Assembly (NCBI GenBank): GCA_003971905.1
Contig: RSEE01000053.1
Coordinates: 372,001-436,000, forward strand
Direction: 5' to 3'
DNA: 64,000 nt
Source: Moniliella sp. 'wahieum'
Lineage: Eukaryota
The notes under the pieces: generated by a model
Seen by the model: the letters and a program-made list of their open reading frames with translations, nothing else
Database searches by the model: none
What the model was told of the DNA's origin: nothing
In this document: in pieces, positions 9,238-53,990 of the stretch
How the letters are laid out: the number at the start of each line of letters is the position of its first letter
Position numbering within the stretch: position 1 is the stretch's first letter
Made by a program: the position numbers and the translations under genes

Positions 9238-10997
9238 ATGTCGGACCTGGAGAAAAGGTGATCGTAGAAGACACCGACTACACGCACTCTGATACCGATT
9301 CCGACTCTCCTTGGGCGCACGACTATGATGGACTGGGCTTGAAGCGTGGGATCAAGCCAAGCGGTCTGATCGCCGTTAGTATTGGGGGTGTCATTGGTAT
9401 GTGACCAGGCCGAGGCCAAGGGAGTGGTGATGGAGAATGCGGTGCTTCGTGACGTGACGCGTGGTGCTGACAGGACCTGGGACTGAACCTGCAACAGGAA
9501 CGGGCATCTTTATTGGCATTGCATCTTCGTACCAGAACGGGGTCCGCTGGGTCTGCTCATGGCCTACTGCTTGATGGCCTCGGCGGTGGTTTCGATCGTA
9601 TTTATGGTATCGTCCATGTGCGCCTACCTGCCCGTAAACGGCGGCCACATCCGTCTTGCCGGCCGCTTCGTCGACCCGGCACTGAGTGCAACCATGGGGT
9701 GGAACTACATTATCTCCACCATCCTTATAGCTGCGTCGGAACTTTCAGCGCAAGCTACGTTGTGGGGCTATTGGTGGGGCCCCGACAAGGTCAACCCGGC
9801 GGTATGGATTGCGATCGGGCAAGTGGTTTCCTTGCTTCTCAATGTCATCTCGGCTAGTTTCTATGGCTATGGCGAGATGTACTTCACCTCGCTCAAGGTG
9901 ATCCTCATGACCGGTCTGATCATTTGCAGTATCGTCATTTCAGCTGGCGGCGGGCCTACGGGTCACTCGATCGGTTTCCACTGGTGGCGCCACAGCGACT
10001 ATGGTCCGTTCCAACAGTACCTTGGGATCCCTGGAACGACCGGCCGGTTCTTGGGTTTCTTTGCCTGCACGATCCAAGCCACATTCAGTATGATTGGTGT
10101 GGAGCAACTGTGCTTGGCCTGCACCGAGTGTCGCAACCCACGTCGCGTTTTGATCGTTTGCCTCAAAACGGTGTGGATCCGGATTGTCTTGCTCTACATT
10201 CTCGGCGTCATCGCGATCGGGATCATTGTCAGTCCTAACAACCCTGCCCTGGGCCAGGACGGCACGGCAGCGTCCAGCCCCTACGTGATCGCCATCAAAG
10301 CGGCAGGGATCAAAGTTCTCCCCAGCATCGTCAATGCCGGTGTGATCACCAGTGCATGCAGCGCTGGGTTTACCTGCGTCTATTCGGGATCTCGGTCGCT
10401 GATCGCCTTGGCGCAGCGAGGTCACGCGCCTCGCGTGTTCCTCTACACGTGGTCCAACGGGATTCCATTGTGGCCGTTGTTACCGTCTGGCTCTTTAGCA
10501 GCATCTCTTACTTGTCCGTTAGCAAAGGTTCAGCCAAGGTGTTTGGGTACCTCACCAGTCTGTCCTCCCTTGGCGGTCTTATGACCTGGTTCTTTATCAC
10601 CATCACCTACTTACGCTTCCGCGCTGGTATGGCCCCAGAACATTCCCACCTCTGCGTTACCCTACCACCATCGGTTGATCAAACCAATGGCGTACTGGAC
10701 CTTGGGCGTGGTATTCTGCGTAGCTTTCTTCAGTGGCTGGACCGTTTTCCGTCCGGGCCATTGGGACTCAGGGACGTTCGTGTGCAACTACCTACCCATG
10801 GCGTATTGCGCTGTGGGCTACGTGGGATTCAAACTGCTGTGGCGTACGAAGATGGTGAAAGCGTCGGAGATGGATCTACACTCATGCCTGGCTGCGATCG
10901 AGGAGGATACGGCACGGTGGGATGCCGAGGACATGCTGCTCAAGGGGGAGAAAATCTCGATCGGGACTCGGATCAAGAACTTCTGGACGGAAACTAG
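9238..10997 (+). CDS. APC-superfamily (YAT-type) amino acid permease
   Basis: LKRGIKPSGLIAVSIGGVIG|TGIFIG, GRFVDPAL..TMGWNY, ASSPYVIA and LPSIVNA; intron ~9397-9498; several frameshifts. Confidence 0.92.
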
Positions 10998-12356
10998 GAT
11001 CCTTCATCTCCTTGCAAGCATCTTGTGGCAACGTGGCAAAACCCTCCCATTCTGTGCATATTCTCCAACCATCACTACCACGGATGTTGCTTTTCTCGCT
11101 CTTTTGGATCTTTATATATGGTGCTCACGTATCCTCGCTGTACCGGGACCACCCTCGCATCTCTGCTTGTGCCAATGTGAAATGTGATGACATGAACGCA
11201 CCACCCCCAGCTACTATACCAGGCACAGCGACTTGCGATTGAGAGCAGTGCTAGGAGACTTGCGGCTGATCACTCAATTCGTCTTCACACCCTGTCGGAA
11301 GGCTGTTCTCCCTCTGATCCCGCCGGATCGGACCGAGTGCTCCAATCCGCACTCTATAGCACAATAATTGTGCAGTCCAGTAGGGACGCCCACTGTTCGT
11401 CTCAAGGCGCGGCCAGGGCCGAACGTTCAGTTTAGTACCTTCGAAATAATCGACTCTGCCTCTTCCCTTTATTCCCCTCTTTGCCCCCGATCAGCTTTAC
11501 GCTGCACTTGCCGCGTGTCCTCACGCGCAAGAATCCCTGTTGCCAATATAGCGAGCCCCTCACTGCGAGGGGGCTATATTTACCAAGAAGACAGCAAAAG
11601 ACCTTGGCGTGGCCACTGATATGTTCACGTGATGGGTCCAAAGGATGGTGTGCTGGTGGGAGAAGCGAGCATGAGAGCACCAAGGAAGGCGCCGGGCGCG
11701 AGACAGGCCGGAGCCCTCGTGTCAGCACGCGACCAGAAGGACGCTACTCGAACCAATAGCAAGCCGATGCGGGATGGTCGATGGGCCGATCAGTGGCGAT
11801 GACGGAGCGGACCGTCGTGTCTGCTGCGGCACGCCACATCGCAGATGACTCACCCGAATAGCCAGCCGTGCAGTATCCAATTCCCACGCAAGCGCCACCA
11901 CCTGGTCTGGGATAGGCGAGGGGCGTCGCGTGCAACTGGACTGAATATTGGATCTGGCCCCCCATGTCGAGGGAAGCCTGAGAATTAAAGCAGGCGCGTG
12001 GCGCGTCGACGGCGGCGGGCGGCGTGGTGTGACATGCGACGTATACACTGCTGTGACGCTGCGGCGGAGGCGTGTCTGCCGCCGGGCCGCAATTAATGGC
12101 TGCATCATCCATCCGACCATCACGCGCCGCACACTGTGCCTGTGCCTGGGGTGTTACGTAATTCCTCGATGGAGCGGCGCGCGGAACACGGCCGAATGGC
12201 TTTCTTCCCGGGCTGCGCAGAGGGATCGGTGCAACGCAGGCGGGCGTGGCAACCGATTTTTTTTGTGCGACGCGGCGGGCGAAGAAGCTTCTTGGCCTAA
12301 AGAGCACGCCGCTGCTGCTGCCTCCTCCCCCCACCTCCCCTCCCCCTCCCTCCCCG

Positions 12357-14418
12357 ATGCTGAGTCCGAGTGTCCACCTGCGCGTCGCCCAGCGCCTCCC
12401 GGCACTCGCTGCCCTGCGCGGCCCGCGCCCTCGCGCTGCCCTCCGTTGCCCTCCGCGCCCGCCCGCCGCCCGCCCTGCCCGCCGCCGCCCTGCCCCGCCC
12501 GGCCTCGGCTCTGCTCCTCCTCCGTCTGCGTTCGCAACGACGACGGCAAGCCCTCCCGCCGCCGAGCCCACCAATTCGCCTCCCTCGAGGGCAAGATCGG
12601 CAAGAAGATGCTCCACGCGCTCACCGTCAAGCCGTTCGGGTACGAGAACATGAGCGACGTCCAACACGCCGTGCTCACCCTCCTGCCCCACGTTGCCGAT
12701 GCCGGTGGCGTAGAGCGTGGGCCCTTGTCCGATGGCCGCGGCCGCGACATGCTCGTCAAGGCCAAGACCGGTACGGGCAAGACGCTTGCCTTCCTCATCC
12801 CTGCCGTCCAGCGCCGGATCAACACTATCGGCCCCATTCGTGCCGGCGAAGTTTCGGAGCGTGTGAGCAAGTGCTGGGTGAAAGGCGGATGCCGAGGGCG
12901 TGCAGGCTGCGCGCTTGTACCGCAAGCAAGCCTTTGGTGCGCTCATCATCTCCCCCACCCGCGAGTTGGCCATGCAAATTTTCAAGGAAGTGCAAAAATT
13001 GACCGCGGGTACCGACCTGGGCTCTCACCTGCTCTGTGGTGGTGACGGCGCGACATGCAACTGCGTCACCTCATGACCGCCCCGCGCGATGTGGTTGTTG
13101 CCACCCCTGGCGCCTGCAAGACTTTTGGAGAACGAGCCGCAGATTGCCGCTGCGGCCAAGTACACCGAGACGTTGGTGTTGGACGAGTGCGACACGTTGC
13201 TCGACATGGGTTTCCGCGACGCATTGGAAACGATTGTGGACTTCCTTCCGGAATCGGAGGAACGGTTGAACCTGCTGTTTAGCGCGACCGTGTCGCGGGA
13301 GATCCGCAAGATGTCCAGCATCGCCTTGGCTGACGACCACCGCTTCATCGACTGTGTTCCCCCCGGCGAGGAGAACGTGCACAAGCACATTCCCCAGCGC
13401 GCGGTGGTTGTGGATGACCCAGCGGACGTGCTGCCGACCGTGGTGGCGCTGATTGCGCAAGACCAAACCGAGCACCCGAACAAGTCCAAGGTGATTGTCT
13501 TCTGCCAGTCGACCAAGATGGTGTCGATGATGAGCCAGTTGCTTCAAGATGTCAGCTCGCTCTTCCCTGTGCGTCGGACGGGGATGTACGAGTTGTCGAG
13601 TGCCAAGTCCAGGGCTCGCGCTCGCGCACCAGCGCCGCGTTCCGCGGCAGCCGCGGCAGCGCTGTCTTGGTCACCTCGGACGTCTCGGCGCGTGGTGGAC
13701 TACCCGGGTACGACGCGCGTGATCCAAGTGGGTGTGCCGCCGACTACGGACACGTACATTCACCGTATTGGCCGTACCGGCCGCGCTGGCGCGGCAGGCC
13801 GGGCCGACTTGGTCATTGCCGTTTGAGCAGCCGTTTGTCGACTGGCAAATCCAAGACCTGCCTGTGGAGACTGTCACGTCGGACGAGGTCATCGCCTCCT
13901 TCGAAGACACGGGCAGCGTGTCCGACTTGAAGGCGGCGTCTGCCGAGGCGATCGAACAAGTGCCCAGCGACACGCTGCAGTTGGTGATGGGTGCCCAGAG
14001 CGGCTTCTACCACATTCTTGCGCCGCTGCTCCAGACCCGCGGTAACGACGTGGTCAACAAGGTTTACTCGTGGTTCTGTGCGTTTGCCCCGTCGGTCGCC
14101 GACGAGCTCACCATGCCGTTCACTGCGTCGCGCTCGCGCGGTGGCAGCCGGGGTGGGTTTGGCGGGCGCAACAGCCGTGACAGCTTTGGCGGCTCTAGCC
14201 GTGGTGGGTTTGGCGGCAGCAGCCGTGGTGGGTTCGGTGGCAGCAGCCGTGGCGGATTTGGCGGCCCGAGCCGTGGTGGGTTCGGCGGCAGCAGCCGTGG
14301 CGGGTTTGGCGGTAGCAGCCGTGGTGGGTACGGTGGCCGCGACTCGGGCCGGGGCGGCTACGGCGGTCGGTCGTCGGGCCGTGGGCGTTTTGAGGCGGAA
14401 GACGACTTTGACTACTGA
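12357..14418 (+). CDS. DEAD-box RNA helicase, MSS116/CYT-19-like, with an RGG-rich C-terminal tail
   Basis: AKTGTGKT, SPTRELA, DECD (motif II), FSAT and YIHRIGRTGRAG; Arg/Ala-rich N-terminus; (GGSSRGGF)n tail; several frameshifts. Confidence 0.9.
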
Positions 14419-14821
14419 GCCTGCTCGCTCGTCCCACAAAAGCGCCGGCGTGCGCACGCAACCCTCGCCTCCCACCGTCCGCGCCGTCTGCTCTGCTTCG
14501 ATCCAGAGTTGCTGCCGTCGCGTAGAAAAAGTCGCGATGCTCGGGTGGGCGGCGATGGTTGTCCCCCCTCCGCTCCGCTCCCCTCTTCCCATCCTGCCCT
14601 CCTTTGTTTGACACCGCTCATCTAAGCCCCCTCCCTCCTATGCATCTGGCGCCTCACATGCACCTTATCTGTCGTGCCCATACAGTAGCCAGTAGCTAGT
14701 ACCTAGTAACTCCCAGCCTACCATAAATACCTCTCCCGACGCCGAGAGAGCCAGGTGAAGCAGTCGGCCAGACTTTTGTGGCAATGGCGTGTGCCCCTGG
14801 AAGCAAAAAGTAGTTGAAAAA

Positions 14822-14908
14822 GGGGTCCGCCCGGGATCGAACCGAGGACCACCTCTACGAGCGAGTCAAGCACCCTAAAGAGGCATGATACCACTACACC
14901 ACGAACCC
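14822..14908 (-). tRNA. tRNA-Pro(AGG) with a 15-nt intron
   Basis: GGGTTCG..CGGACCC acceptor stem; CCTCT-TTAGGG-intron-T-AGAGG anticodon arm; GGTTCGATCC T-loop. Confidence 0.93.
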
Positions 14909-15352
14909 CAATTGGCTGCAAGTGTGATTGGTAATTCCTTATGCAGGAGATTATGGTTCTGGCACCGACATGCACGCAGTTTCCCCAAACGCCCTTTCTC
15001 TCCTAGGTGCAAATGTGGACAGCAACAAGAACCGGTTTCAGTCAAGCAAGGTAACCTCCGACGAAGTTGAGTAACCCCCACTACCGTACGTCCCATCCCA
15101 TCGTCTGACTCGCAAACAATATATGGTCAGCTAGTGGTATAGCGCAAGCGCGAGCAGGAAATAGGTTGTTCCACTCAGTCACCTTTCATCATTCCCTATT
15201 GTGCTTGTCTCTTTCCTATGGGCCAGTTTCCATAGTTAAACCCTGCATTGTTTGCATCCATGTCTTGTCCAGAGCCTAAGGCGGGGACAGAAAGGGTCCT
15301 GCACCTAACCGGTCTACGCATCCGTCGTGCGCTGCTGCTTGGTGCCACCCAA

Positions 15353-17000: not shown

Positions 17001-17691
17001 ACAGCCGGCAAATTCGTTCCCCGCAGGCGATGGGTCGTAAGGCGGGATGCCAACAGGATCCCATGGCCCGGAGCCGGAGCAGTCCCGTGGGATGCCACCG
17101 GCGAGGGCGGTTAAAGCGGCATGGGTCTGAGTGTGCTGATCAAAGCGGGGAAACCAATCTCGGCCGAGCCCATCTTAAACGCTTCCCCTGTCGGTCGGAT
17201 TGGAAAAGGGGGTGCCCGGCACAGTGCCACGCAGCCTGTGGTGCGGCTCGCATGAGTGCGGCGTGGTGCTGCCAAATGCTGGGCCCGAGCCGAGGTTGAA
17301 GAGATCCGCCTCGCCCGCGGAATGGAGCGTGTCGAAGCCTGCCGACGTCTGTGAGGCGAGGCGCAATGGAGAGTTCGCAGGTGAGAATGGCGTCGCGCTA
17401 ATAAAACGCGTCGATCGCGTTGCTTCACCCCAGTGCTGATATAATAGCACGTGCAGTGCACAAATCCGGCCCCAACAGCGATGGACAGTGGAACGGTGGG
17501 CGGTGGAACGATAGCCCATCTGGGGTTGGCGCGCGTACGGAGGGTCAGCCTACGGCACCCACGCCTGGTCTTCGACTGTATGGTATGTTGTCCATTGCTG
17601 CATGCGCCTGTACGCAACCTCACCTCTTCTCCCTCGCGATATGCAAGCTCTCAGATCGGATAGCCCAAACAAACCCAAGCAAAAGAAAAAG

Positions 17692-17791
17692 TGACTGCCC
17701 CCAGAATCGAACTGAGAATAACAGAGCTCAGAATGAGCCGTATGATCGCGCATCGCCACAATCTGTCGTGATACCTTTTCACCAGGCAATC
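17692..17791 (-). tRNA. tRNA-His(GTG) with a 29-nt intron (17727-17755)
   Basis: GATTGCC/GGCAGTC acceptor stem; GTGA/TCAC D-stem; ACAGA-TTGTGG-intron-C-TCTGT anticodon arm; CTCAG-TTCGATT-CTGGG T-arm; T-rich terminator follows. Confidence 0.92.
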
Positions 17792-18664: not shown

Positions 18665-18762
18665 GGCAATGTGCCCGAGCGGTTAAGGGGATTGATTAGA
18701 ACTCTCATATTCTAACCATCAATTAGGCTCTGCCTGCACAGGTTCGAATCCTGTCATTGTCG
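18665..18762 (+). tRNA. tRNA-Ser(AGA) with a 16-nt intron
   Basis: GGCAATG/CATTGTC acceptor stem; ATTGA-TTAGAA-intron-A-TCAAT; long variable arm AGGCTCTGCCT; GGTTCGAATCC. Confidence 0.95.
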
Positions 18763-19589
18763 TCTTTTTATTCATCGGGTTTACCTGCTTTTTTTTATTA
18801 GCGTATATACATTCGTGCACGAAGGAGAGACTATGGTTGTTGTGCCAACCGAAAGGTAGTACATGAGGGAAAACCGCAACACCGGGGGAGCCCTGAGTAA
18901 GAAGAAGTTGCTTCTGCCGTATTGGGTTACGCCTGGGGTAGAGAGTAGACTGGGACGGGGCAGAGTGAGTTGCGGCAGCGGCAATAACTTTTTGGCTTTT
19001 GCAACACAGGGCCGACCCCAGTTGGGACTTGGACAGTGCAGAGTGAGCAGCGGCGAGGCGGCGAGCTTGTATCCATGCTTCTTGGATTTGCTCACTAAAT
19101 CTTCGTCTCCTTTCGAGACGAAGGCTCCGCGTCCGTGTTATTATCTTCAGAAATGTCTCTACCATCTCGGTCTCAGCATCTGCGCGTCGGGTGGTGGTCG
19201 TCTCTCCACCCGCGGCTCAAATGTGCCAACACGCTGGTGTTTTGCATCCGCAGGCGCATACTTTATTGATGGGACACATTCTTTCTTCAAAGGGCGATAC
19301 TGGTTTCCCTTTTCTGTGAATGCAGGAACACCCTGGCCTTCCGTGACGCGTGAACCGAAACTGAGGCCGGTCAACCCGTCGAGAATGGCTTCCCAATGCT
19401 CACCCCATGGGCGCGAGCGTACTTACATCAACATAGGGTACTCGGAACGGTTTCGAATCATCTGCAAGATCCAGATGAGCGATGAAGGGCGGCAATGAAG
19501 ACTTTCGGCCAAAACGTGAGGACAGGGGAAGACCAACGATGCTGCTTTCGCAACAGTTCCTCCGCCTCTTGACAGCCCCCGCAAAAAGT

Positions 19590-19661
19590 TGCCTCCTAGC
19601 CGAATCGAACGACTAATCTTCGCATTACGAGTGCGACGCCTTACCATTGAGCCAAAGAGGC
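19590..19661 (-). tRNA. tRNA-Thr(CGT), intronless
   Basis: GCCTCTT/AGGAGGC acceptor stem; TCGCA-CTCGTAA-TGCGA anticodon arm; GTTCGATTC T-loop. Confidence 0.92.
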
Positions 19662-20371
19662 ATCGGGTTCTCTTTAGTGATTGTTAGAGTCACAAGCGTA
19701 CCATCAGTTGCAGTTGCAAGGTTCTTCGTTCCCCCTCGAAATACATCCCGTCGGCACCGTTTTGCTATATGGGATCAAGTCACAAGCCGGTCTCTGGCTT
19801 GGTGAAGTCGGCATGTCTGTTTTGCCTTCTTCATGAGGCTTCCTTTTCATTCACGGCCGGCTTTATCCTTTACCTGATGTGTCTTCGCTCTCTCCTTTTC
19901 GCCTCCGGTTTGGTAGTTTATAAATGTAGGCATCACTTCTTTCATTGGAGAACTGCGGGCTTCACTGACAACGTTCCACGACTGTATGATTGCCATCAGC
20001 GAAGATGATGAATAACACTTAAGAACTGCGCAACAGCCCTTACAGTCCTAAGTCCCTTTTCTCACCGGCTGCTGAGGCGATGGAAGAGAAGCGTTGAGCC
20101 TGTTGAGAGCCATGGGGGGCGCTTTGGATTCTATGTCTTCGTCGTGCCTTATATTATTCTTGGATCATACAGAAGACGGGCCGATGAATTAATGAGACTA
20201 GGCTAATATGCTTGAAAGCAGTATCTTCCACTCCACCCCCTCTCTTTTTTGGCTTCGAAATGAGTGAGACGTGTGTGTCATCATGCATCAACAGCCACAG
20301 TTCGATTCATCCCTGCACGATGAGAGATATACACATTCCAAAGACCCTCTCTCCCTTCAGGCAGATAGGCG

Positions 20372-21520: not shown

Positions 21521-21618
21521 CGACAATGACAGGATTCGAACCTGTGCAGGCAGAGCCTAATTGATGGTTAGAATGTTGGAGTTCTAATCAATCCCCTTAA
21601 CCGCTCGGGCACATTGCC
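21521..21618 (-). tRNA. tRNA-Ser(AGA) with a 16-nt intron, second copy
   Basis: Exons identical to 18665-18762; the intron differs at 3 positions. Confidence 0.95.
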
Positions 21619-32056: not shown

Positions 32057-34766
32057 GGCGAGGGGAGGCAGAGGGAGGGCAGAGGATGGGAAGGACGAGG
32101 GAGCGGTGGCGGGGGACGGCGGCGGGCACGGCGGCGGCGCGTGTCTGATGGTGGTGGCGGGTCTAATAGCGGACGGGTGAGGCCGAGGGAGGGGCGCTGG
32201 GCAGCTGGCTGCGCTGGGCATCAGGAACGGAACGCAGGGCCCAGGCACAGCGGGCACCTGCCTGCTGGTACGCAAGCCAGGTACGCGCTACGCCCCAGCG
32301 GGTGCCCGGTGCGCCGTCCCCGGTCCACCGACACCGCTCAGCCTGAGCTCAGCCTGGGCGCTCCGCCAGGAACACAGCCGCGTGCCTGAAAATGCCGACA
32401 CTGCGCCCGTGCGGACCGCTTTCAGCCATCGCAGGCCACCGCACCCGCCAGCAGCCGCACCGCGCCCTGGCGCACCCGTCACCTGTCGCCTATGGCACAG
32501 TACTCAGAGCCTGTGATTTCTCACGCCCCCGCGCTGGACGGGGGCAGTGTGCCACGACCTCGGCCGAGGGGAGAGTGGGCAGCGCTGGGGGTTATTGATT
32601 CTTGGTTCCTGGTTCGGTGCCTTAAGTTTCGCAGTTGGCGTTTGGCGTTTGGCGTGTCTTAGCACGTCCTGAGTGCTTCAGCTCCTCCTCCATCCACAAT
32701 CGACTGCGTACGTGTCTCCACTCATGAGCAGCAGGCCGCGGGAGTCGCTCTTCACCCCCTGTGGCTCGGTCATGCCCAGGGCACAACGTGTGGAGGGGAA
32801 GGGGTTGGTCTGTGGGACTTGAAGCTTGAAGCTTGATGTGGATCCGTGTCTCCTGTGGAGGCGGCTTCCGAGGCGGAGCGTTAAGTCACTGATAGTGACT
32901 AGTGACTAGTGACTACTAGTCAGCGCGCTCTCGCTCTGTGCTGAGCCCCAGCCCTGAACATTTCAGCCCTCGGCCTCAATGTTCAATGGCAGCGGACTAT
33001 GCCGTCAACTCCCAGGCCGTGCGTGCACCTTGTCAAAGCTCTGCAAGCGGCCAACAGCTTCCACACACGTTCAAGAGGGCCAACAATTTCAACATGGCTT
33101 CGTGCACTACTGGCTAGCCAGCCACGCCGGCTTACCTGGCTCAGCGCTTTGGCCTCAAGCTCAGAACACTCAGTTGAGTACTCACAGTACTCCTCATACT
33201 CGTAATCATTAATCGATAATCATTAATCACATGTCACAGTGCTAATAGACGTACCATCAGTGGCGTACCACCATCGTAAAACGCGAAATCCATACTCGAC
33301 AACTGATCATCGATCAGACTAGCTACTTGGTAGACTAGCTACTTAATTGGTTAAGTGACTGTGCGCACTATAGCACCCACTCACGTGCACCCTCGCCTCC
33401 CCCATAGTGCAGATTGTGATGGCCTCCCACTTCACCGACCACTCTGGCTACACGCCTCTTCTCATTCTCGTGACGCGTGACGCGTGAATCAAGAATCTGT
33501 ACCAGTTAATCAGTCCTGAGCGCGTCATCCATGGCATGCATGTCACCGGTCACCGGTCACCGGCAAAGATGCTGATGTGCAAAAGTGGTGCAAAAGACCG
33601 GTCGGTGCCTGGGTGTGCCTGGGTTTTCCCTGTCTTCAGCTTCTTCGGCACACTTCGGCAGGCCTCGGCACTAGTTTCAGCGCCGGGCTTTGGCGTAGCA
33701 TCCAATGCGTAAATGTATGGCGAGGCCCTGAGGCTCAGCCTGAGGCCGCCGCAGCCCGTGACAGAAGGTGCCGGGGGGCCCAAAAGATGATCTAAGAGGA
33801 TTTACATATTTACTTCTTAGCTCCCTCGATCCCGGCTCATACTATAGGTGGTACTGCTCCATGCCGGGTACCCGGTACCCGCTGCCCGGCGTGTCTCTGC
33901 CAGTCTCTGGCCCTTTTGGTTTCAGACCTCTCAGAATACTGAAGCTCTGAAGCTCTGAGATCTGAAGCTTGAAGCAGACCGAACCTGCAAACCCTTTTGA
34001 TCGAGATCTCAGATCTGTGAGATCCCAGATCTTCTCCAGCCACAAGTGCAGCCACTCGCAACTCGCAACTGTTGGTTATTGGCGAAACCTCCGAAGAAAT
34101 TCGCTCGCACATGAATGTTTCAGCATTCCCCCCCGCAATGTTCTTCCTTATGCGTTACGCGTTACGGGGTTTGCAACCGTCCGCACTTCCAAAACCAAAC
34201 TTTATCCATCCCACGGGCACAGGCTGGCACAGGCTGGCCGTAGGCCCTGCCAGCCAAGCCTAAGCCACGTACGGTACGTACGTCCCTTGCGTGCGCCCTG
34301 CGAACACAGGCTTTCATTGAATATTGAGCGAGCCTGGTAGACGTTAGATGTACCGAGGCGTAGCCGCGGCGTAGCGTTTCTTGGTTCCTGTTCCATGGTT
34401 TGCCAAGGCCACGAATCTCAATCCAGCAGCGATATACGATGGCAGCTATTGCAGACCATTACAGTTCCTGGTCTCGCGGTGCTGAACGATACCCTGCCGA
34501 TGGGTGCCGAACAGCGCTGTATACTTCAGTAGGAGTTACTGTTAGTTACTCTTCCTGTTGTTACTATAGTCACGTGTTACATGTTACGCCGGATTGGCCG
34601 GTGGCTGACTAGACTGCTCTGGATTCTTTGTATTCTCTTGCGGATCGACGCGCTATCAGATCTCTGATCTCCAATGTCAGATGTCAGACAGTGTGTAGAA
34701 CCTGCCGCTGCATCTATCGACTATCGCACTCGACTGAGACTCTAACTCGGCACGCACAGTACTCAC

Positions 34767-34977
34767 TGTTGACCACCAGTGGTCTAGAGCCCATCGGCCT
34801 TCAGTGACACGTGGCCCGATCCACACAGTGCACCGGGGCAGTGAGTTCCGACCCTTCCACGGGTCTCCACTGGCCTCCAGGCCAGGAGCCTATCAAGGCC
34901 CATAGCTCTAGCTCTCCTTAGCTCTTGAATGCCATCTCCATCGACCATCGCCAGCATCGCTAGCTAGGCCTGTGACA
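34767..34977 (+). repeat. 5' LTR of the copia element
   Basis: TGTTGACC...GCCTGTGACA, direct repeat of 39813-40023. Confidence 0.98.
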
Positions 34978-34990
34978 GAGCTACAATCTG
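34978..34990 (+). promoter_or_regulatory. Primer-binding site complementary to a tRNA anticodon arm (best match: spliced tRNA-His(GUG))
   Basis: GAGCTACAATCTG abuts the LTR, lacks TGG, and pairs with CAGAUUGUGGCUC with one G-U. Confidence 0.75.
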
Positions 34991-35123
34991 AAGCACCCCA
35001 CTGGCGCAAAGGATCAATACTCAGCACCACCATCGGCGCCCACCGTCACCACCACCACCAACGCCACCATCGGCACCACACACCAACCAATTCAAAAAAA
35101 AAACAAAGGAAAAATCAGCCACC

Positions 35124-36355
35124 ATGCCCCCCGAACTGGAAGAAAACACCCCTCCTCCCGAAGTCTCTGTCATCGAAGAGGCGCAGGACATCGACGAACC
35201 GACCACCACCCTGTCTCCGACCCGACCTGGCAACAGGCCCTCACCGCCGTCAGAGACAACCTCCTCGCAAGCACCCGCGCGTTCAAGCCCACCAGCGCTG
35301 ACAATCTCCGCTCCACATGCCGCTCGTTCGCTACGGATGCACACACGGCGGCGTATGGACCGAAGAGCAAGAAAACACCGGGCGGAAAGGAAAATTGGAT
35401 CTACACGCTCACCCTCGCGTTGGAGAAATATGTATTGGCCGTTGAATTCACGAAGCCGCAAAACACCCGTGAGGCCCTTGCATCCGCGAGTGAGGACATG
35501 GCCGAGCTTCGCCACGCTGAGAAACGCGCGTCAAAAGAGATCGAGCGTACCAACGCGACGCGCAAGGACGCCTTCCGCGACCCCACCGAATATGTGCTCT
35601 GGGAGCCCTCCATCCTCAACATCCTGGACCGCATCCACCCCGCCGCGAAGGACATCGTTCGCTCCGGTCCATCGTCACCACACTACGACTCGTCCCTCGA
35701 TCTACGCCTCCAGAACCTTCTGTGGTCCCACCTCCCGAACGACGTTCAATCTGCCATTATTGCACAGGACAACGTTGACACGTCAGCTGACTTGCTCCGT
35801 GCCCTGCGAAACAAATACGGTACGGTCGACTGCAAGACGTATCATGAATTGTCCAGTCGCTTTCACCACTGCTACCAAAACCGGCGCAGCGGGAGCGCGT
35901 TCCTATCTGAAATGGGGACGCTCCGCAACCGGATCAGCGCAACCACACCGATGTCGGACGAGCAATTCCGCCGTATCCTCGTCGGGGCCCTCCGCGACCC
36001 TGGTGACCGTCGCCGCCTAGAGCACATGACTCTGGCGGAGACAATGCAAGACGTGGAGAGAATCCCAGCGGACCCAGAGTACAGAATTCCGTACCGGGGC
36101 CGTCACCCCCGGACCGCCAACTCGGGCGCTGGCAAACACGACAGCGCGGGATCCCAGCAGCATAGCGGGGGTCCTCCTGCCGGTGCATCTCCCCGTAGCG
36201 GGGGTGCTCTTGCGAGAAAGCCGTCCGGCCACACCGGGGTTCCTTCGAACAACAAATGGCACCGCAACAGCTCCGCGCGAGCGCACATTGCCACCGAAGA
36301 CGACGTCTCCGAAGGGGAGACCCTGTCTGTGGACCTTGCCCTATCTGACAAATAG
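35124..36355 (+). CDS. Copia Gag
   Basis: Helical capsid-like region (LLWSHLPNDVQSAII..SADLLRALRNKYG); ends at TAG 36353-36355; N-terminal frameshift(s). Confidence 0.8.
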
Positions 36356-39300
36356 GAACTCGCGGGCAACCAGGACATCCAGTCTCGTCACGACTCGGGC
36401 GCGGATCCTAGCATCTGGAAGGATCTCAGGGTATTCAAAACCCTCAAGCCCAGCAACCGCTCAATCGAAATCGCTGATGGAAAACATATTAAAGCCAGTG
36501 GACGCGGAACATGTAGCATCGGTATCAAGTGTACCGACGGCAAATGTATCCATGTAGACCTACCCGGCAGTCTATACGTCCCCGGCATAGCAAGCAATCT
36601 CACGAGCGTAGCGCAAATAAGTGACGCAGGCCACGCATCCTGGTTCGCCCCCCACCGAAAAGGTATCTGGTTAAATGACAAGCATGGCAAATATCACCAA
36701 ATCGCGGATTCCTCATACAAGCTGAACATCGTCCCGAAACCGACCCACAAACGAACACGCGGCCAAAGCTGCCGTCGCCACCCAACACACCGCAGCCAAC
36801 ACCATCGAGCACGTCATGTACGTTCACCAACAGTACAACCACGCCGCGCTAGACCTACTCCCGACACTAACCGCCAACGCGCGAGCGAGCCTCCGCGTCA
36901 GCCCTGCCCAAATCCGACGCATCCGCCCCTTCTGGCATTGTCCCACCTGCACAAAAGCTCTGGCCAAAGCGCCCAGCCCCTTCGCGCCACGGCCGCCGCA
37001 TTTCGGAACGTCCTTTCGAAGTACTGCACGCCGACGTAGTCGACCTCCCTCGCATCACTGGCATGGGACATGGATACGCCCTGGTCGCGGTTGATGACTG
37101 GAGCCGTTACACCTTCGCTGTTCCCCTAAAGACGAAAGGACAAGCCACGGCGGAGCTGAAAAAACTCATCACCCGCGAGCAACGCATCGGAAAGGACCGT
37201 CTGCTTCGCATCTTGAAGACAGACAATGCCCCCGAGCTCACCAGCGCACCGTCCGTTCCTTGAATCCGAAGGTATCACGACGGAAACCACCATACCAGGC
37301 CAAAGTCAATCAAATGGGGTGGCCGAGCGAGCCATCCAGGCAATCACCACACGCGCGCGCCAACTCATCATCGCCTCGGGCCTCCCGACATCAAACTGGT
37401 GGCAGGATGCCTTGCTGGCAGGGTGCTGGACGCACAACCTCATGCCACCGACATCTCCACGCCAGGGCACACAATCTCGGGCTGAGCTGTACAAGGGGTC
37501 ACCCCCACCGCTGCCAATGCACGCCTTCGGATCCTTGGCGTACCTTCACCTGGCCCAGGACCAACGTGACCATAAGCTCAGTCCGCGGGCTGTCGAAGCC
37601 ATGCTCGTCGGGTACGACGCAGGTCGAGGTACAAAGGGTTGGCGCTGGGCTGTGTACGACCCGTCCATGGGCACGTTCCGATCCCAATGGGCAAAACCAT
37701 ACAAGTGGACCAGCGCCAATACCACGAGGTTTTCCCCGACCGCTTTCCGCCTGACGTATCTCGCTTCCCGCTCAACCCCTGCCTGACAGAACTATGACTG
37801 ACACTGAAACCAAAAGGGAGAAGAAAAAATGAACAAAATTGAAGTTGCAAATCCCAACACACCACCGAGAATCAACACTGATACTGACGCGACCATCGCA
37901 AGACAAAACGACACCCATCCAACCACCCCCACCACCAGACGGTACCCGCCCGGACCCACCAGCGCCGTTTTGACCTTGACTGGGCACAGCTCCCCGTAGC
38001 GGACGACCCTCATGATGGTGACTTCCACGCACACGCTGCCGCGCTGCCTCCGGTTCCCCTCCCTGACGGTAGTCGTAGTCCTGCGATCGGCCTACGCTTC
38101 CCACTGCCCGACACTGCCCTGCCGCGTACAGCGACGGTCTCCATCCGCCTGAATACAAGGCGATGATCGCCCTTAGCGAGCCAGGGCCGCACGAGCGCAT
38201 CCAGCTCACCAAGGACGGAGTACCTGTTGCACCCAAGACAATGAAGGGCCTCCAATCACACCCCTCATTCGAACCAGTGCTGGAGGCGATGCGCACGGAA
38301 ATCGACACCCTAGCCCGCTACGGCACATTCGAAGTCGTCACGCCCCCTCCAGACGCGCAGCTGCTGATTGGTCTATGGCGCATCAACACCAAAACGGACG
38401 CGGACGGAAATTTCCTACGCTACCGAGCCCGTCTCGTTGGGGGGCCACCAGCAGGATGCTGACACATGGGGACAAACATTCGCCCCTGCCGTGCGCACTC
38501 CTGCCATCCTCAGCCTTATCGCCCTTGCTGGAAAGTTCGGCCTCCACCTCTTCACTGCTGATGTGCACTCTGCCTATTTGAACGCTCCCCTCACGGAAAA
38601 AGTGTACCTCCGCCCACCCCCATTCTTTCCCGAGGAAAAAGGCAAGGTCTGCGTCTCCGGAAAAGCCTATATGGCCTCCACCAATCCGGCGCAAACTGGG
38701 CGGTATTCATCCGTGACTTGCTCCGCGGAGACATGGGTTTTGTACAATCTCTGGCTGAGCCGTGTTGTTCATCCGACCCCGTAAAGGCGACACGGTCCTC
38801 CTTGCCGTGCACACCGACGATCTTCTCATCGCTGCACGTCTCACGCACGCTACGATTCCTTCCTCACTGAGATCAACACCCATATCGAGGTGCGGGGAAA
38901 CGGCCCCCTACACTACCATCTTGGCTGCCAGTACGACACCATAAACGGGAAACTGTACCTTAGCCAGCCAAAATTCATTGAGGAATCCATTGCCAAACAT
39001 GAGGTTCCGCCACCCCTGGTTATGGGCCTCCCCCACCCCAGCAAGATGATCCCCGCGCGCACCGACCCCGAACCGCCCGCACTGCCCGCCGAGAGACGCG
39101 ACTATCAAGCCCAAAAGTAGGATCTGGGCTGTGGGCTGCCCGCATGTGCCGCCCTGATGCGCTGTTCGGCATCTCAGCTCTAAGCCGAGCAACTGCCGAT
39201 CCCTCCAAGGCCCACCGCGCTGCGGCAACAAACTTCCTCCGCTACCTCTACGGTACCAAGGGCTACGGTCTCCGACTAACACCCGAGCCTGACGCACCCG

Positions 39301-39818
39301 CTCTCGCGCTATACACGGATGCCGACCTGGCTGGAGACCCTGACCAATGGCGTTCCACGTCGGGATGCCTGCTTTTCGTCTACGGGGTTCCAGTGTCCTG
39401 GAGGAGCGTGCGTCAACCCAAGAGCGTCACCAACACTGCTGCGGCCGAATATACGGCGGGATATGAGGGCCTCATTGATGCGAACTACGTTAAAAACATC
39501 TTACTGGAGCTCGGTGCCATCACCTCAGACGAGCCCATACACTGGTACTGCGACAACATGGCGGCACTTGCCTTGGCCGAAAAAGTGGGCAGCACGGGCA
39601 AACTACGTGAGCTGAACATCCGGTACCACAACGTACGCCAGCATGTCGACTCGGGCGAAGTCAAAATCGCGCACATTGCTGGAAACGAGAACCCGGCCGA
39701 CATCCTCACCAAACCAGCCACTAAGGTCTCACTCCTGGCCAACTTGCCTCGCCTCAAGCTTGAGGACGTTACAACCTTCCATCGTGCCACTGAGACCTCT
39801 GGCCAGCGGGGGTGTTGA
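36356..39818 (+). CDS. Copia Pol (protease, integrase, RT, RNase H); starts in frame with Gag after the TAG
   Basis: PR DSGA at 36392; IN H..H..CPTC, DDWSRY, TDNAPE and SNGVAER; RT YRARLV, DVHSAYLNA and HTDD; RH YTDADLAGD, CDN and ENPADILTK; multiple frameshifts. Confidence 0.93.
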
Positions 39819-40023
39819 CCACCAGTGGTCTAGAGCCCATCGGCCTTCAGTGACACGTGGCCCGATCCACACAGTGCACCGGGGCAGTGAGTTCCGACCC
39901 TTCCACGGGTTTCCACTGGCCTCCAGGCCAGGAGCCTATCAAGGCCCATAGCTCTAGCTCTCCTTAGCTCTTGAATGCCATCTCCATCGACCATCGCCAG
40001 CATCGCTAGCTAGGCCTGTGACA
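39813..40023 (+). repeat. 3' LTR of the copia element
   Basis: Identical to the 5' LTR except gggtTtccac vs gggtCtccac. Confidence 0.98.
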
Positions 40024-41845
40024 CTCACTGTACTCACTCTCAATGTTAGGTCCAACTGTGTGTTGCATTGCGTAGTGGGTTCCTGCGTTCCTGGTCTGTA
40101 TACTTTAGGCAAAAGAGGATGAAGCATGAAGCATGATGCATGATGCATGATGGGTTACTAGCTTTACTAGTTGCTGGGTATGGAGATTCCCTCTGACTAG
40201 CTGTTTCCTCTTGGACTGAGAGGGGACGTTCCCGGTGGGTGCTACCCTGGGCTGCGACACTGCCACAACACCTCCCTCAGCCACCGGTTTCACCTGCCCC
40301 ACCACCTACACGCCCTAGTACAACTATTAAACGTCCATCAACCGTTCTAACAGTTCCAACCCTTCTAACCCTTCCAACCGTTCTAACCTTCCAACCGTTC
40401 CAACTGTTGACCTCTGGTCATTTATGGCCAAGGTCACTTCCGAGTGACATCATGTGTGATGCGCGTGTGATGTTTTCTGACGTGGCGTTTCCGACTCCAT
40501 GATGACTTGGATTCGCCACCGCCTTAGCAATTTGGCCTCATATCGACCACCATTCCCATTTGCTGCTCTTTGAGCTCTTCCTGGGCGTTAATAACCTTCC
40601 AACCGTTCCAACAGCCCACTGGAACGGATTCCTCTGGCTCCTCTTTTTAATCCTAGAGACAACAGCAACGCAACAGAGACACTTCGAGCACACATGTCTG
40701 TCGCATAAGTCACCTACTGTCATCCGTTTGGTTTGCACCGCCTCTCCCCGTCCCAGATGGGCGAGAGATAGTCCAGCGCTCATCGATTATCTCCCTCACG
40801 GAGCGAGAGGGGACAACAAGTCCGTTGAGATGTTACTAGTAGAGGAGACATCAACAGGCTCTACTAGCGATTCGTGCTCTCACCCGCGGGCAAATGAAAA
40901 CAACGCAATTATAGTTATATCCCTTGGAGATCGGAAAGGTGTCCCTCCACGTGCCGCAGGTCTCGTCCGACATGGGTGGTCTTTCGGCGGTATATGGTGC
41001 TGCGTACAAGGTACCTCGGGCTTTTGCGCAGTTATGACGATGTGAAGCCGTGCGGACACGGGTACCAGTCGGGTCGAGATTAAACGAGGGAGAGCAAGGT
41101 CCTGTCAGAGGCGGGGGGGAAGGCAAAAGTTCGTTCATGGAAGGAAACAGAAGGCATCGGGCAGAGAACAGAGAACAGAGAACAAAAGCAAAAGGAAGGG
41201 ATGAGCGAGAGACGTGGGGATGGCGGGAGGGGGAGGGGGAGTGAAGGCCAAACCCTTTCAGGACTGTAAGACTAATAATAGGCGACCAGGAGATGCGATA
41301 ATTGGAGCTGATGGGGAGGAAGAGAAGCTGACTTGACGCTTGCACCGAGAGTGGGAGTGGGAGCGGGAGTTGGGACACCTGTATATTGGGTGCTGGAAGA
41401 TGAGCAGCGAATGAGAGATCCACGGTGCCTGGTTTGGTCCATTGGCGAGAAAGGAGAAAAGACCGCCAAAAGGACCGGGAAGGGGCGCGGCACTGGTCGA
41501 GCCAGAGGGGGACGAAATCGGGGCGGAGAGTGTGCGCGCAAAAAATAAGGCAGCTCGCACGTGGCCTATATACGTCGGACTAGTCGGTCCCACCGTGATG
41601 GCACGCATCTTTTGACCAAGTAAATTCTCACGCCTGAAAAAGGAACGACTTCCTTCCAACCCCCCCCACCTCGCCCCCTTTTGGGGGGTAGCTTTGAGGG
41701 GCGGAAAGGAAGGAGGAACACGGGCGCTTCTCCGTGTGCGCACAAATGTCTCCATTTGACCAGGAGAAAAACCGTTGCACGATGCGGCATGCATTGTCCT
41801 CCTCTGTTCGTTGGGCATATACGGACTGAAAGCCAAAAGAAGATG

Positions 41846-42239: not shown

Positions 42240-42900
42240 CTCATCGCGTATGGCATGTGTTTGTGCCTGCTGCCTCGACGAGTGGGCCGCGTCATGCGAT
42301 GCTTCATGCGTGACCGTGGACACTGAATCCAACGTACTAACTAGCACCTAGCTGCGACGGCCCAGCACCTACTTTTTTTTTTTGTTGAGGCCGGTTGGAC
42401 CGCCTCGGCCGCAAGCAGCATGCGTCGTCCGTCCGCCCACGTGGCTACACTACACCACTACATTACACTCCACTCCACTACACTACGTTACACGACATTC
42501 CACTGCTACATACAAAAGACAACGTGCAATGGCGTGGCACCGAGCGGGTAGGACACAACTAGGACGATAGCACGCGCGATACGAGCAACGAGCAACGAGC
42601 AACGAGCAACGAGCAGGGCCAAGGCCAAGGCCAAGGCCAAGGAAAACGCAAGGCAAAGGTAAAGGTAAAGGTAAAAGGCAGGACCAACGTTCAACGGCAA
42701 GAGAGCAGGGCAGAAGAAAAGGAGGCAGGTGGGGAAGTGCAGGGGAAGGGGAAAGGGGGTGGAAGAGAAATAGGGGGGGAGACAGGGAGGGAGAGAGGCA
42801 GAGAGGGAAGGAAGGAGGGAGGGAAGGGGAGTCCAAGCCACCTAGCCTATGCGCAGGCAAGTCCAGTACACAATCTTGTCCGTCCGTCCGTCCTGCTAGC

Positions 42901-44883
42901 CTAGTACTCCCAAGCATTCGACCTGCCACAATCGTCGCGTGTGGAACTGGCACCGGTACGGGCAGTCCGGCGGTCCGATCCACGCTCGCGCTCCCGCTCG
43001 GCACGACGGGAAGAACGCGTACGCGCACGGTCCCATTCCCGTTGGGCATCCCATTGAGCTTCCCGTTGAGCTTCCCGCTGAGCTTCCCACTGTGCTTCCC
43101 GTTGGGCATCCCGTTGAGCTGCCCGCTGCGCGTCCCTTTGGGCATCGCGTTGCGCATCCTTTTGCGCTTGGCGCCGCGCGTCTCGCTTCGCATCTCTCCG
43201 CGCGTCCCGGCGCGCATCCGACTCTTGTCGTTCTCGCCGCGCATCGCGGTGCCGACTGTGACTGCGAGCGTCGCGCGAGTCGGGTGGGATCCTCCTGTCG
43301 CGCTCGCGGTCCCGGCGGGACAAGCGCTCGTCTGTCGCCGAGGGCGGTTGGTACTCGTAGTAGGTATCCGTGTACCGGTCCCTTGGTTGGTACGGATACG
43401 TGGAAGCAGCTTGGGCGGCGTAGGTGCCAACGCCGGCATACGTCTCCGTCGCTTGGCTCGAGGACAGGTAGGCGTCGTCGTGCCCGTCTGCATAGGGTGC
43501 TGGGGCGTGCTCGGCCGTGGTGCCCGACAAGTAATCCGTGTAGCCGTGCTCCGTGCCTGGGTCCGGGTAGGCACCGCCATAGGACAACGTCGGTTCCAGA
43601 ATGTAGTCGACGCTTTGTTGCCCGACCCGGGCTTGCGGTAGGACGCAACCTCGGTAGAGCGCGAGGAGGACTTGGCTTCTTTATTGGAATCGTACGGCAC
43701 GAGTAAATCGCGCGTCTTCTTTTCGCCATACGGATCGTCAGTGTACTTTTTCCTCCGCGCATCCGAGACCAAGGTAGTCGTCGTCGCTGACGCCAAGCCG
43801 GGCTGGTAGCTGGCCGTTGTGCTGCGCCACGGACCCACATAACCATCGTCGTACGGGTGCTCGGTCAATTGCGCCGCCGCACTGGCCGCTGCATAGGACG
43901 GGTGGGCCATGTCGTACCCGTACTCGCCGGCTGCTGGGTCGAGTAGTACTCTGTCTCCTTAAAGAAGGGCTCGCCAAACGATTTGCTCGCCTTGACGCCG
44001 GCCGGACGCTTGGTGGTCGGGAACCCGGCCGCACCCAGGTCGTGCTTCGCCGGCCAAAAGTCGTAAATGTACAACGCCAGGTACGGCACCAGCAGGAACG
44101 CGATCGTCCACTCGCACCCGGCCGCGGCAGCAATGTGGCGCTGGCACTGCGGCACGTTGGCCCAGTACTTAAAGTTGCTGCAGGAGAGGTAGAGACAGCC
44201 AAAGGCGATCGCGACGCCAATGGCGACAATGAGGATCATGAGTTTGATGGTGGCAGGCCAGAGGAGCTGCTTGAAGGAGCCGCTCCAGGCGGCATGGGCA
44301 TTGGCCAGGTCGTACAACACCAGCGTCTGGAACAGTACCGAGACCAGCGCGCCAGCGGAGAGGCAGTCATGCTCCAGTGGAAGGAGCCGTGCTTAAAGGT
44401 GTTGAAGATGCTGAGGAGGACGAGACCAAAGGAGCCGGCGACGGCGGCGACAAGGGAGCACATATCGAGGATGGTGGTGCGCTTGCGCAGACTGCCGGGG
44501 ATGTAGCGCTGGTGGCGCAGGTAGCGCTCGAGCAGGACGGTGGTGATGTAGCCGATGGCGGTCAGGACGCAGAAGGCGATGAAGAAGTGCTGGTGCTCGG
44601 CGCTGGGGGGGATGGGGGGGTCAGGATACGGCAAGACGGGGAGACGGGGAGACGGGAGACAGGGAGACAAAAAGACAGAGAGACAGAGAGACGGGACATA
44701 CCCAATGTCGGAGATAAAGACGGAGGACGCATATTTCTTTTGGACCTGGCCGCCGATGATGGAGGAGCCGACGTAGTGGTCCTTGCCCGTGGCGGCCCAG
44801 AGGGCGGCGCAGCCGACGAGGGCGATGGTCCAGGAGAGGGCAGCGCCGAAGGGCGCGAGCCAGTACCACGCGCGGAAGCGCAT
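42901..44883 (-). CDS. Frag1/DRAM/Sfk1-family membrane protein with a long low-complexity C-terminal tail
   Basis: VFISDIG|A, ERYLRH..YIP, LVLLSIFNT..H...HW and AAGCEWTIAF; intron 44603-44701; frameshifts. Confidence 0.85.
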
Positions 44884-52321: not shown

Positions 52322-53990
52322 ATGACGATGGCCACGCTGGGAGCCAACGGCAGGGTGGCTGCGACGGCAACGCGGTGCTGGACATGTGGGAGGCATGCAA
52401 CAAGACTGATACGCTCTTTGTCATGTTCTGCGCTGGTACGTCCCCTGGCTACTTTTCGCGTCTGCGTGCGCTTGCGCTTGTGCAGCGCCTCGCGAGCGTG
52501 TGGATGGCTGCCACGGACCCTGACTGCTGAATCTGTGATCAGCGACCTGCTGGCTCGTTATCCCAGCCATCGGCATGGCCTACAGCGGCTATTCTGTCCG
52601 CCGCAACGGCCTGGCCAGCTATCTTCCTTCCTTGATCGCACTCGCCCTCACCTCGCTGCAATGTACGTCCCTGGTGTTACCTTGTCCCCAACACTGACAC
52701 TGCGCCTCTGAAGGGTGGGGATGGGGCTACTCCCTTGCCTTTTCTGAGGGCAACGCGCTGATCGGCGACTTGAAGTACCTGTTTCATCGCGGGGTACTCT
52801 CCGAGCCCGTTGGTACCATCCCCGCTGTGCTCTTTTCTTTTTTCCAGCTCCTGTTCTGTGCCACGGTGGCTGCGATGAGCATGGGGGGCGGGACGGAACG
52901 GATCCGGCTGATTGCCCTCGTGCCCCTCGTGCTGCTCTGGACCACGTTCGTCTACTGCCCCTTGGCGCACATGGTGTGGACCGAGCAAGGCCTGCTCGCT
53001 CGGTTGGGCGTGTACGATTTTGCGGGGGGTACCGTGGTGCACATTCTATCCGGAGCCAGTGCGACTGCCATCTCAGTGTATCTGTCCCATCCGATCGGAC
53101 GGAGCAAGAAAAGCTCCACCCGTACCCCAGCCCACCTCCAGCTGCACAAGCCCCACAACATCCAATGGATGCTGCTTGGCATGATCCTTATCTGGTCCTG
53201 CTGGCTGCCCTTTGAATCGGGCACCGCACTCGCACTCAACTTCAAAGCGGTCATGGCCTTTGTTGTGACCAACTTTGCCGCTGCCTCAGGGAGCGTGACA
53301 TGGGCACTGTGGACTTGTATGTTCTCCCCTCCCCCTCTCAACCTACCATCACCGTTCGGCGGGACACCGAAGTGAGAGGCTCGAACAAGAAAGACTGACG
53401 CATGCGTGACAGACATGGAGGAGAAACGCTGGTCGCTGGACGCGGCGATGCTGGGGATGATGTCTGGTTTGGTGATGATCACGCCGGCGGGAGGGTTTGT
53501 GGGGGTGACGGATGCGGTCCTGTTGGGGGTGCTGGGAACGTGTTTGATCCGCCAAATGCTTCGGTACAAGTTCTCGGGGCATGCGCAGTCGGTGCGATGG
53601 GTGGACCCGGCGGATGTGTTTGCGACACATGCGTTTGGCGGCGTGGTAGCCACCTTGTTGACGGGTGTATTTGCCAGCAAGGAGGTGGCCAGTTGGGATG
53701 GCGAGACAGTGATCCCGGGCGGGGTGCTGTACGATGGTCACACTGTCCAACTCGTCATCCAATTCGTTGAGGCATGCGTCGGAGCCACCTGGGCATTTGG
53801 CGCGACGTACTTGTTTATGGTGCTGATTGACCAGGTGCCCGGCCTGGAGGTGCTGGCGACCGATGAGGACCTCAAAGTCGGCATGGACGCTGCACAGCTT
53901 TTGGAGTCTCTTTCGGGTGACCACGCGCAAGACGAGGCGGACTACCACCGCATGGCCACCTCGAGGGTCAAGTTGCACTGTGACATGTGA
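52322..53990 (+). CDS. Ammonium transporter (Amt/Mep family)
   Basis: GYSLAF, FFQLLF, YCPLAHMVW, DFAGGTVVH, GLVMITPAGG and DVFATHAFGG; introns ~52437-52542, ~52663-52713 and ~53318-53413; start uncertain. Confidence 0.93.

Follow-up and report, generated by a model that had tools for sequence, protein, structure and literature searches.

A single in-frame UAG separates gag from pol in a Ty1/copia retrotransposon of Moniliella sp. 'wahieum', and Gag has the same end point in a second lineage of the family that shows no other break in its predicted gag and pol. The element is a long terminal repeat (LTR) retrotransposon that lies on the + strand at 34767-40023 of the window, by which we mean the whole 64,000-nucleotide (nt) stretch analyzed here (contig RSEE01000053.1, positions 372,001 to 436,000); all coordinates are those of the window. 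As far as comparison of sequences can tell, it is probably a stop-bypass element resembling Tca2 of Candida albicans. We put at about an even chance the reading in which UAG is the gag terminator of a copia family with gag and pol in one frame, and near-cognate readthrough is the most economical way past it. This kind of layout is already known: what is new here is a UAG without a visible stimulator. Published work is cited by PubMed Central (PMC) number.

The gag/protease junction

The letters across the junction are GAC AAA TAG GAA CTC GCG GGC, with TAG at 36353-36355, and the standard code gives ...LSVDLALSDK, then the stop, then ELAGNQDIQSRHDSGADPS...GSLYVPG.... A sequence-only reading of this DNA had placed one in-frame UAG at the Gag/protease boundary, followed by the protease motif DSGA and by LYVPG. 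Letters and translation agree that the stop is real, and exact coordinates confirm the rest: the catalytic Asp (GAC, 36392-36394) of DSGA lies 12 codons from the stop, and LYVPG is encoded at 36572-36586, in the same frame as gag. The Pfam copia protease family Pol_BBD spans residues 13-92 past the stop (E 3e-12). It was also right that no ATG precedes the protease active site. Past the stop, the protease frame is free of Met as far as its end at 37036, nor is there one in the integrase frame between 36726 and the ATG at 36816, and the first AUG from which pol could be translated separately comes only after 153 codons past UAG. Because gag and protease share one frame and no AUG occurs over those 153 codons, readthrough is the simplest form of bypass.

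A second lineage with the same Gag end

We searched 1.84 billion representative proteins with a 506-amino-acid query made up of Gag, an X in place of the stop, and the protease. Forty-six proteins matched at E ≤ 0.001 and one at E ≤ 1e-10: P0002, a protein of 410 amino acids that is 94% identical and whose residues 34-410 align with residues 1-377 of the query. Its N terminus (MPPELEE...) corresponds to the window ATG at 35124, and its C terminus (...LSVDLALSDK) to the residue preceding TAG. Apart from P0002, identity in this search was at most 43%, and at most 36% for matches that span the junction. A word-indexed search of 5.8 billion proteins returned P0002, which comes from a 5089-nt contig, as the sole match among 7999 scored candidates; among 299 candidate proteins longer than 887 amino acids, none scored against the junction and protease part. 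The window Gag (35124-36352) matches no Pfam family at E ≤ 0.01 and P0002 only a sub-threshold Retrotrans_gag (E 0.084); no zinc knuckle of the form CX2CX4HX4C was visible in Gag by eye, and open reading frames (ORFs) antisense to the gag/pol junction matched no family.

With the RNase H end as the query, we found P0048 (1004 amino acids, 96% identical), also from a 5089-nt contig. Its Pol is uninterrupted, with domains rve at residues 65-164, SH3_retrovirus at 236-285, and RVT_2 at 506-735, and its start, MYVHQQ, corresponds to the first ATG in the window pol frame (36816). Since the Gag of this independent, ORF-intact relative ends at the identical residue, the position of the UAG is more than chance, and the UAG does not appear to be a private lesion of the window copy; and since Pol is intact from its first ATG, with no earlier Met, the sole "defect" of the P0048/P0002 lineage would be the shared stop.

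Frameshift-aware alignment of the window gag with P0002 and of the window pol with P0048 gave identity at 384 of 409 and 958 of 993 positions, respectively, with 1 frameshift in gag and 12 in pol (Table 1). In neither alignment does a stop fall opposite a residue, which agrees with the earlier statement that the other lesions in pol are indels. The two copies differ at 60 amino acids; without selection, the codon make-up of the element predicts some 2.6 nonsense changes alongside these, and none was seen (Poisson P(0) = 0.07). Pol is more conserved than Gag between the two copies (35 of 993 vs 25 of 409 residues differ; Fisher p = 0.04), as expected for lineages diverging under selection.

The predicted structure also bears on the position of the stop. 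We modeled the protease as an AlphaFold2 monomer, together with X and the 47 residues that end Gag (44-row alignment; mean predicted local distance difference test score [pLDDT], 78.3). The 47 residues before the stop are disordered in the model (means of 10-residue blocks, 47-55), whereas confidence is high starting some 2 residues past the stop (block means, 80-97); the stop is residue 48, and the first strand comprises residues 56-61. Since disorder precedes the stop and the protease fold follows it, the stop appears to lie in a linker, where a gag/pol boundary belongs. The best fold matches of the protease model in the PDB were to the proteases of xenotropic murine leukemia virus-related virus (XMRV), Ddi1, and human immunodeficiency virus, all of them weak (best E 3.9e-3, none at E ≤ 0.001). 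As a separate matter, we considered and rejected an N-terminal protease strand encoded before the stop: MAFFT put TLSVDLALSDK on a hydrophobic segment of single-ORF relatives, but its pLDDT in the AlphaFold2 monomer is below 50. Taken jointly, the evidence favors a feature over a lesion, each point being modest.

Proposed bypass of the stop

The layout, and the Gag end that it has in common with a second lineage, are observations; from them we infer a bypass, and with it a rate and a mechanism. Most ribosomes would terminate at UAG and yield Gag (410 amino acids in the intact relative), and a minor fraction would bypass it to yield a Gag-Pol fusion, which would be cleaved into protease, integrase, and reverse transcriptase (RT)/RNase H. 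A near-cognate tRNA would decode UAG, aided at most by the AA before it and the G after it. In yeast, UAG is read through more often when AA directly precedes it, and the type III viral signal, the kind found in murine leukemia virus (MuLV), starts with UAG-G (PMC4615788, PMC10085805). That start, UAG followed by G, is present at 36353-36356.

Several observations weigh against readthrough, or against a functional stop altogether. The 8-nt spacer, GAACUCGC, has purines at 4 of 8 positions and so lacks the purine-rich character of type III signals, and the hexamer 3′ of UAG, GAACUC, is neither CAAUYA (type I) nor another of the motifs listed in PMC4615788. A structure downstream of UAG, for which the sequence-only reading had proposed a folding check, did not emerge: the 98 nt from UAG fold no more stably than shuffled sequences (z −0.16; 93 of 200 shuffles as stable or more), z ranged from +1.59 to −0.77 in seven further intervals (60-203 nt), and a crude scan for H-type pseudoknots (two stems, each 5 bp or longer, beginning no more than 14 nt past the stop) found none, with shuffled sequences scoring 7.0 on average. 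A non-canonical or long-range structure may exist nonetheless. Tca2 itself, which had been invoked as a known case of readthrough, is an unproven one: 300 nt of its junction failed to direct readthrough in Saccharomyces cerevisiae (PMC2194720). The window copy is broken, with at least 14 small frameshifts. Two copies are known, the second as protein only, its stop codon, protease region, and gag-protease frame not being visible. Distant relatives are continuous across the stop site, the usual single-ORF copia layout; of 44 BLAST-matched relatives, 30 keep the motif D[ST][GA][AC] and 24 of these have at least 45 uninterrupted residues before it. Finally, lesions are common in the region: in host genes close by, too, there are nonsense codons and frameshifts.

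Of the Tca2-like stop bypass that had been proposed, one part stands: the stop appears to be common to a second copy with otherwise intact ORFs, which fits a deliberate gag terminator and a pol expressed by stop bypass. The other part fares less well, for of a MuLV-type signal only UAG-G is present. Bypass may need no local stimulator, relying on distant or element-encoded stimulators or on host conditions that lower termination, a non-canonical route in fungal copia elements that is suspected for Tca2 as well, although we think this rather unlikely. MuLV offers an example of an element-encoded stimulator, a Pol product that acts on release factor (PMC2194720).

Alternative explanations

The main rival to a functional gag terminator is an inherited inactivating mutation, TAG then marking a dead or non-autonomous sublineage that is moved in trans by single-ORF relatives; the two known copies would stem from a master element in which Gag-Pol continuity was already gone. 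We consider it unlikely, if the most serious of the alternatives. Such a history would suit the frameshifts of the window copy (at least 14), the nonsense codons in host genes of the window (TAG and TAA in a GH127 gene, TGA in a helicase-like gene), the failure of the fold and pseudoknot scans to detect a readthrough signal, and the 24 distant relatives that are uninterrupted for 45 or more residues before the catalytic Asp. It fits poorly with a stop that falls exactly in the disordered linker preceding the protease fold, in a family whose relative has gag and pol otherwise intact; neither copy carries other nonsense, and Pol is conserved above Gag. Nor was a single-ORF close relative found, with 0 of 299 long candidates scoring and junction-spanning matches at 36% identity or less.

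The frameshifts themselves may have another origin than decay. Besides the 13 mapped by alignment, one lies near 36730, between protease and integrase, for a total of at least 14, or about one indel per 340 nt. The 13 mapped frameshifts (35208-39112) are length changes of 1-2 nt, mostly in single-base runs, and all except the last look like losses. Natural decay is an odd fit to many indels with no nonsense substitution and near-identical LTRs: at least 14 indels, no nonsense, and LTRs identical at 210 of 211 positions suggest indel errors of the assembly, concentrated in the repeat, which fit at least as well as decay.

Pol might instead be translated separately from gag, whether ribosomes enter internally, initiate at a codon other than AUG, or use a transcript that begins near the junction. 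The protease fold does start after the stop, its model needing no pre-stop residues, and a minor promoter is present at the junction of Tca2; yet Tca2 Pol proteins tracked the LTR promoter and not the junction promoter (PMC2194720). Here AUG is absent for 153 codons past the stop and the sequence gives no hint of an entry site, and we regard separate translation as improbable.

Splicing could remove the stop if TAG served as the YAG of a 3′ splice site, with the branch-point-like motif CTGAC at 36346-36350 only a few bases ahead of TAG/G. An inferred host intron at 53317-53412 uses GTATGT...CTGAC...CAG, a GT at 36305 would yield an in-frame intron of 51 nt, and a canonical GTGAGT occurs at 34841 in the 5′ LTR. 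However, the donor of the 51-nt intron (GTCTCC) is non-consensus, and it is not conserved, because the intact relative has Ile where the Val codon of the window supplies GT; P0002 retains the 17 residues in question. On these two grounds, the donor and the Ile codon, we rejected the mini-intron at 36305-36355. Among 8 donor-like sites upstream, only the one in the LTR is canonical, and its use would delete gag and leave pol without an AUG. Splicing ranks as quite improbable. We note separately that GTGAGT at 34841 and CTGAC...TAG/G at 36346-36355 could bound a 1515-nt intron that removes gag; the chance expectation for GTGAGT there is about 0.4.

It is very unlikely that the in-frame layout is an indel artifact, concealing a family whose pol lies in another frame and is reached by ribosomal frameshifting. 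The indel frequency of the window copy (about one per 340 nt) and a +1 frame that is open from 36030 to 36554 would allow for it, but the protease is modeled confidently in the gag frame. Because its fold begins about 2 residues past the stop, some 15 nt are left for an artifactual indel, with about 0.05 expected. The +1-frame peptide over the junction is not protease-like, and AAA-UAG-G would give no re-pairing into the protease frame. We also rejected frameshifting at AAA-UAG-G as such, since both other frames over the junction are not protease-like.

We give almost no credence to the idea that UAG is a sense codon in the host, whether because its code is reassigned or because it has a suppressor tRNA, with the element a plain single-ORF copia. 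ARAGORN does call a "tRNA-Stop (tta)" at 14821-14909 (− strand), and the in-frame TAG and TAA of the GH127 gene are colinear with the Pfam model. We rejected the suppressor: the tRNA gene is doubtful, Rfam matching no tRNA there at E ≤ 10, and in its intron mode ARAGORN calls it a tRNA-Glu(ctc) with a 15-nt intron. We rejected reassignment as well, since in-frame stops of all three kinds (TAG, TAA, and TGA, one each) occur in host genes and TAG is absent from the aligned codons of pol (993) and gag (409).

Layout of the element

The element is a Ty1/copia LTR retrotransposon on the + strand (Table 1). Its LTRs are identical at 210 of 211 positions (99.526% over 211 nt, one mismatch by blastn) and both flanks carry the 5-bp target-site duplication CTCAC; the repeats are direct and have TG...CA ends. 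Of the 13 stop-to-stop ORF pieces, 5 have Pfam matches, and these follow the copia domain order, integrase before RT: Pol_BBD, rve, SH3_retrovirus, RVT_2, RVT_2; the rve match, at 32.1 bits, is slightly below the cutoff of 32.6. The stop codon of RT/RNase H (TGA) falls within the 3′ LTR, and the C-terminal ADILTK agrees with the ADxxTK motif (PMC5445492). With its near-identical LTRs, the window copy is a recent insertion. A blastn search of the element against the whole window returned only itself and the LTR pair, with no second copy there, and no element DNA was matched in a collection of bacterial and archaeal contigs.

Table 1. Features of the Ty1/copia element, with coordinates in the window
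Feature	Position	Strand	Basis
Target-site duplication CTCAC, left copy	34762..34766	+	Sequence read directly
5′ LTR, 211 nt, TG...CA ends	34767..34977	+	Direct repeat and blastn
Candidate primer-binding site, 2 nt past the LTR	34980..34990	+	10 of 11 bases; unconfirmed tRNA-like partner
gag (ATG to TAG), frameshifted once near 35208	35124..36355	+	Alignment to P0002
In-frame UAG closing gag, context AAA-UAG-G	36353..36355	+	Sequence; end residue of P0002 = 36350-36352
Protease, retropepsin-like, in the frame of gag	36356..36735	+	Pfam Pol_BBD E 3e-12; AlphaFold2
Integrase (zinc-binding region, rve core, SH3-like domain)	36726..37790	+	Pfam; alignment to P0048
Integrase frameshifts near 36730, 36978, 37249, 37712, 37771	within 36726..37790	+	
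pol as aligned, frameshifts at 36978, 37249, 37712, 37771, 37812, 37949, 38125, 38439, 38650, 38766, 38831, 39112	36816..39815		Alignment to P0048
RT and RNase H	38079..39818	+	Pfam RVT_2 on two ORF pieces; P0048 alignment to 39815
RT/RNase H frameshifts at 38125, 38439, 38650, 38766, 38831, 39112	within 38079..39818	+	
Polypurine-like tract AGCGGGGG, abutting the 3′ LTR	39805..39812	+	Assigned from position alone
3′ LTR, 211 nt	39813..40023	+	Direct repeat and blastn
Target-site duplication CTCAC, right copy	40024..40028	+	Sequence read directly

The 11 bases of the candidate primer-binding site are complementary at 10 of 11 positions to CAGATTGTGGC, the would-be anticodon arm, with GTG, of an unconfirmed tRNA-like candidate at 17691-17791 (− strand). 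ARAGORN reports this candidate in intron mode only and labels it tRNA-Tyr. Its acceptor stem is plausible and its D arm odd; a 29-nt insert follows the TTGTGGC loop, whose GTG is His-like. The Rfam tRNA model did not recognize it at E ≤ 10, and a search of the primer site itself with Rfam matched neither a tRNA family nor any other. The His half-primer suggested by the sequence-only reading is a candidate only, which we retain as a lead. Also in the window are two 98-nt tRNA-Ser(AGA) genes, at 18665-18762 (+) and 21521-21618 (−), inverted around a tRNA-Thr(CGT) gene at 19588-19662; the pair is near-identical, its differences being confined to the 16-nt introns.

Host genes in the window

Besides the element, the window carries genes for proteins of the GH127, Ank-PH-oxysterol-binding, and YTH types and for an ammonium transporter and an amino-acid permease. 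Such a set is eukaryotic and, together with the introns in tRNA genes and the signals of the inferred intron at 53317-53412, fits a fungal host. The GH127 β-L-arabinofuranosidase gene at 4907-6787 (−) contains an in-frame TAG (5762-5764) and an in-frame TAA (5357-5359). At both stops the translation runs on colinearly with the Pfam model of the catalytic domain (positions 138 to 142 and 270 to 274), so that an intron would not fit, and about 1900 nt are free of frameshifts; the gene is probably a pseudogene. The permease gene at 9487-11184 (+) changes frame twice, near 10467 (Pfam position 331) and at about 10600-10650, again with no room for an intron: it is either a pseudogene or, as with the retrotransposon, a product of assembly indels. 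A DEAD-box-like helicase gene at 12737-13823 (+), with DECD for DEAD, has an in-frame TGA at 13074-13076 in its core and a degenerate-looking motif region.

At 43024-43203 lies an array of about 15 head-to-tail units of 12 nt, seen as 11 overlapping 60-nt copies at 12-nt spacing that are 67-82% identical to the reference copy. The array sits in a 491-codon ORF at 42483-43958 (−) that belongs to no Pfam family.

Comparison with known systems

How retroelements control the ratio of Gag to Gag-Pol is a classic recoding question. In Ty1 of S. cerevisiae, a member of the copia superfamily, recoding yields Gag in excess over Gag-Pol; Ty1 pol lies in the +1 frame, whereas here pol is in the 0 frame. 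Among copia-type elements with an in-frame stop, Tca2 has a junction that failed to drive readthrough in S. cerevisiae. Another copia family, apparently unrelated to it, with UAG rather than UGA and no apparent downstream structure, would provide a useful comparison for asking whether local context is sufficient or bypass occurs by other means. If bypass does proceed without a local stimulator, the family would offer a second system, independent of Tca2, for working out how such a stop is passed. By itself, the UAG layout is an expected variant of a known strategy. In-frame gag/pol stops are established in fungal LTR retrotransposons (PMC10085805, PMC2194720); among the open-access papers listed by our literature searches, none described a fungal copia element with UAG between gag and pol.

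Tca2 is, like the present element, a copia-type retrotransposon of a fungus (here a probable one) in which one stop splits gag from a same-frame pol that no AUG leads, and its bypass mechanism is likewise unsettled; its LTR-driven gag-pol RNA must bypass a UGA (PMC2194720). The two differ in that Tca2 combines UGA with a purine-rich 8-nt spacer and a conserved potential pseudoknot, whereas here the stop is UAG, the spacer has 4 purines of 8, and a structure was not found (PMC2194720). The proteins are probably not close either, since matches other than P0002 reached at most 43% identity, and priming by an internal tRNA fragment is only a candidate feature here. MuLV shares UAG-G, same-frame gag and pol, and a protease straight after the stop, and the best (weak) fold matches of the protease model include that of the gammaretroviral XMRV. 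Unlike our element, MuLV is a retrovirus, not a copia element, and requires a purine-rich spacer and a pseudoknot, neither of which was detected here (PMC4615788, PMC2194720).

The fission yeast elements Tj1, Tcry1, and Tosmo1-3 are likewise fungal LTR elements with an in-frame gag/pol stop and adenines ahead of it, and transposition of Tj1 requires its stop (PMC10085805). They are of the Ty3/gypsy type, however, and their TGA lies in a strictly conserved 8-bp sequence, GAA-TGA-CT, in place of the AAA-TAG-GA found here (PMC10085805). Drosophila copia and plant Ty1/copia elements have in common with the present element both the superfamily and the order protease-integrase-RT-RNase H; these elements consist of a single ORF and set Gag:Pol via a spliced gag-only RNA (PMC2194720, PMC5580714), whereas in the element described here a stop codon would set it.

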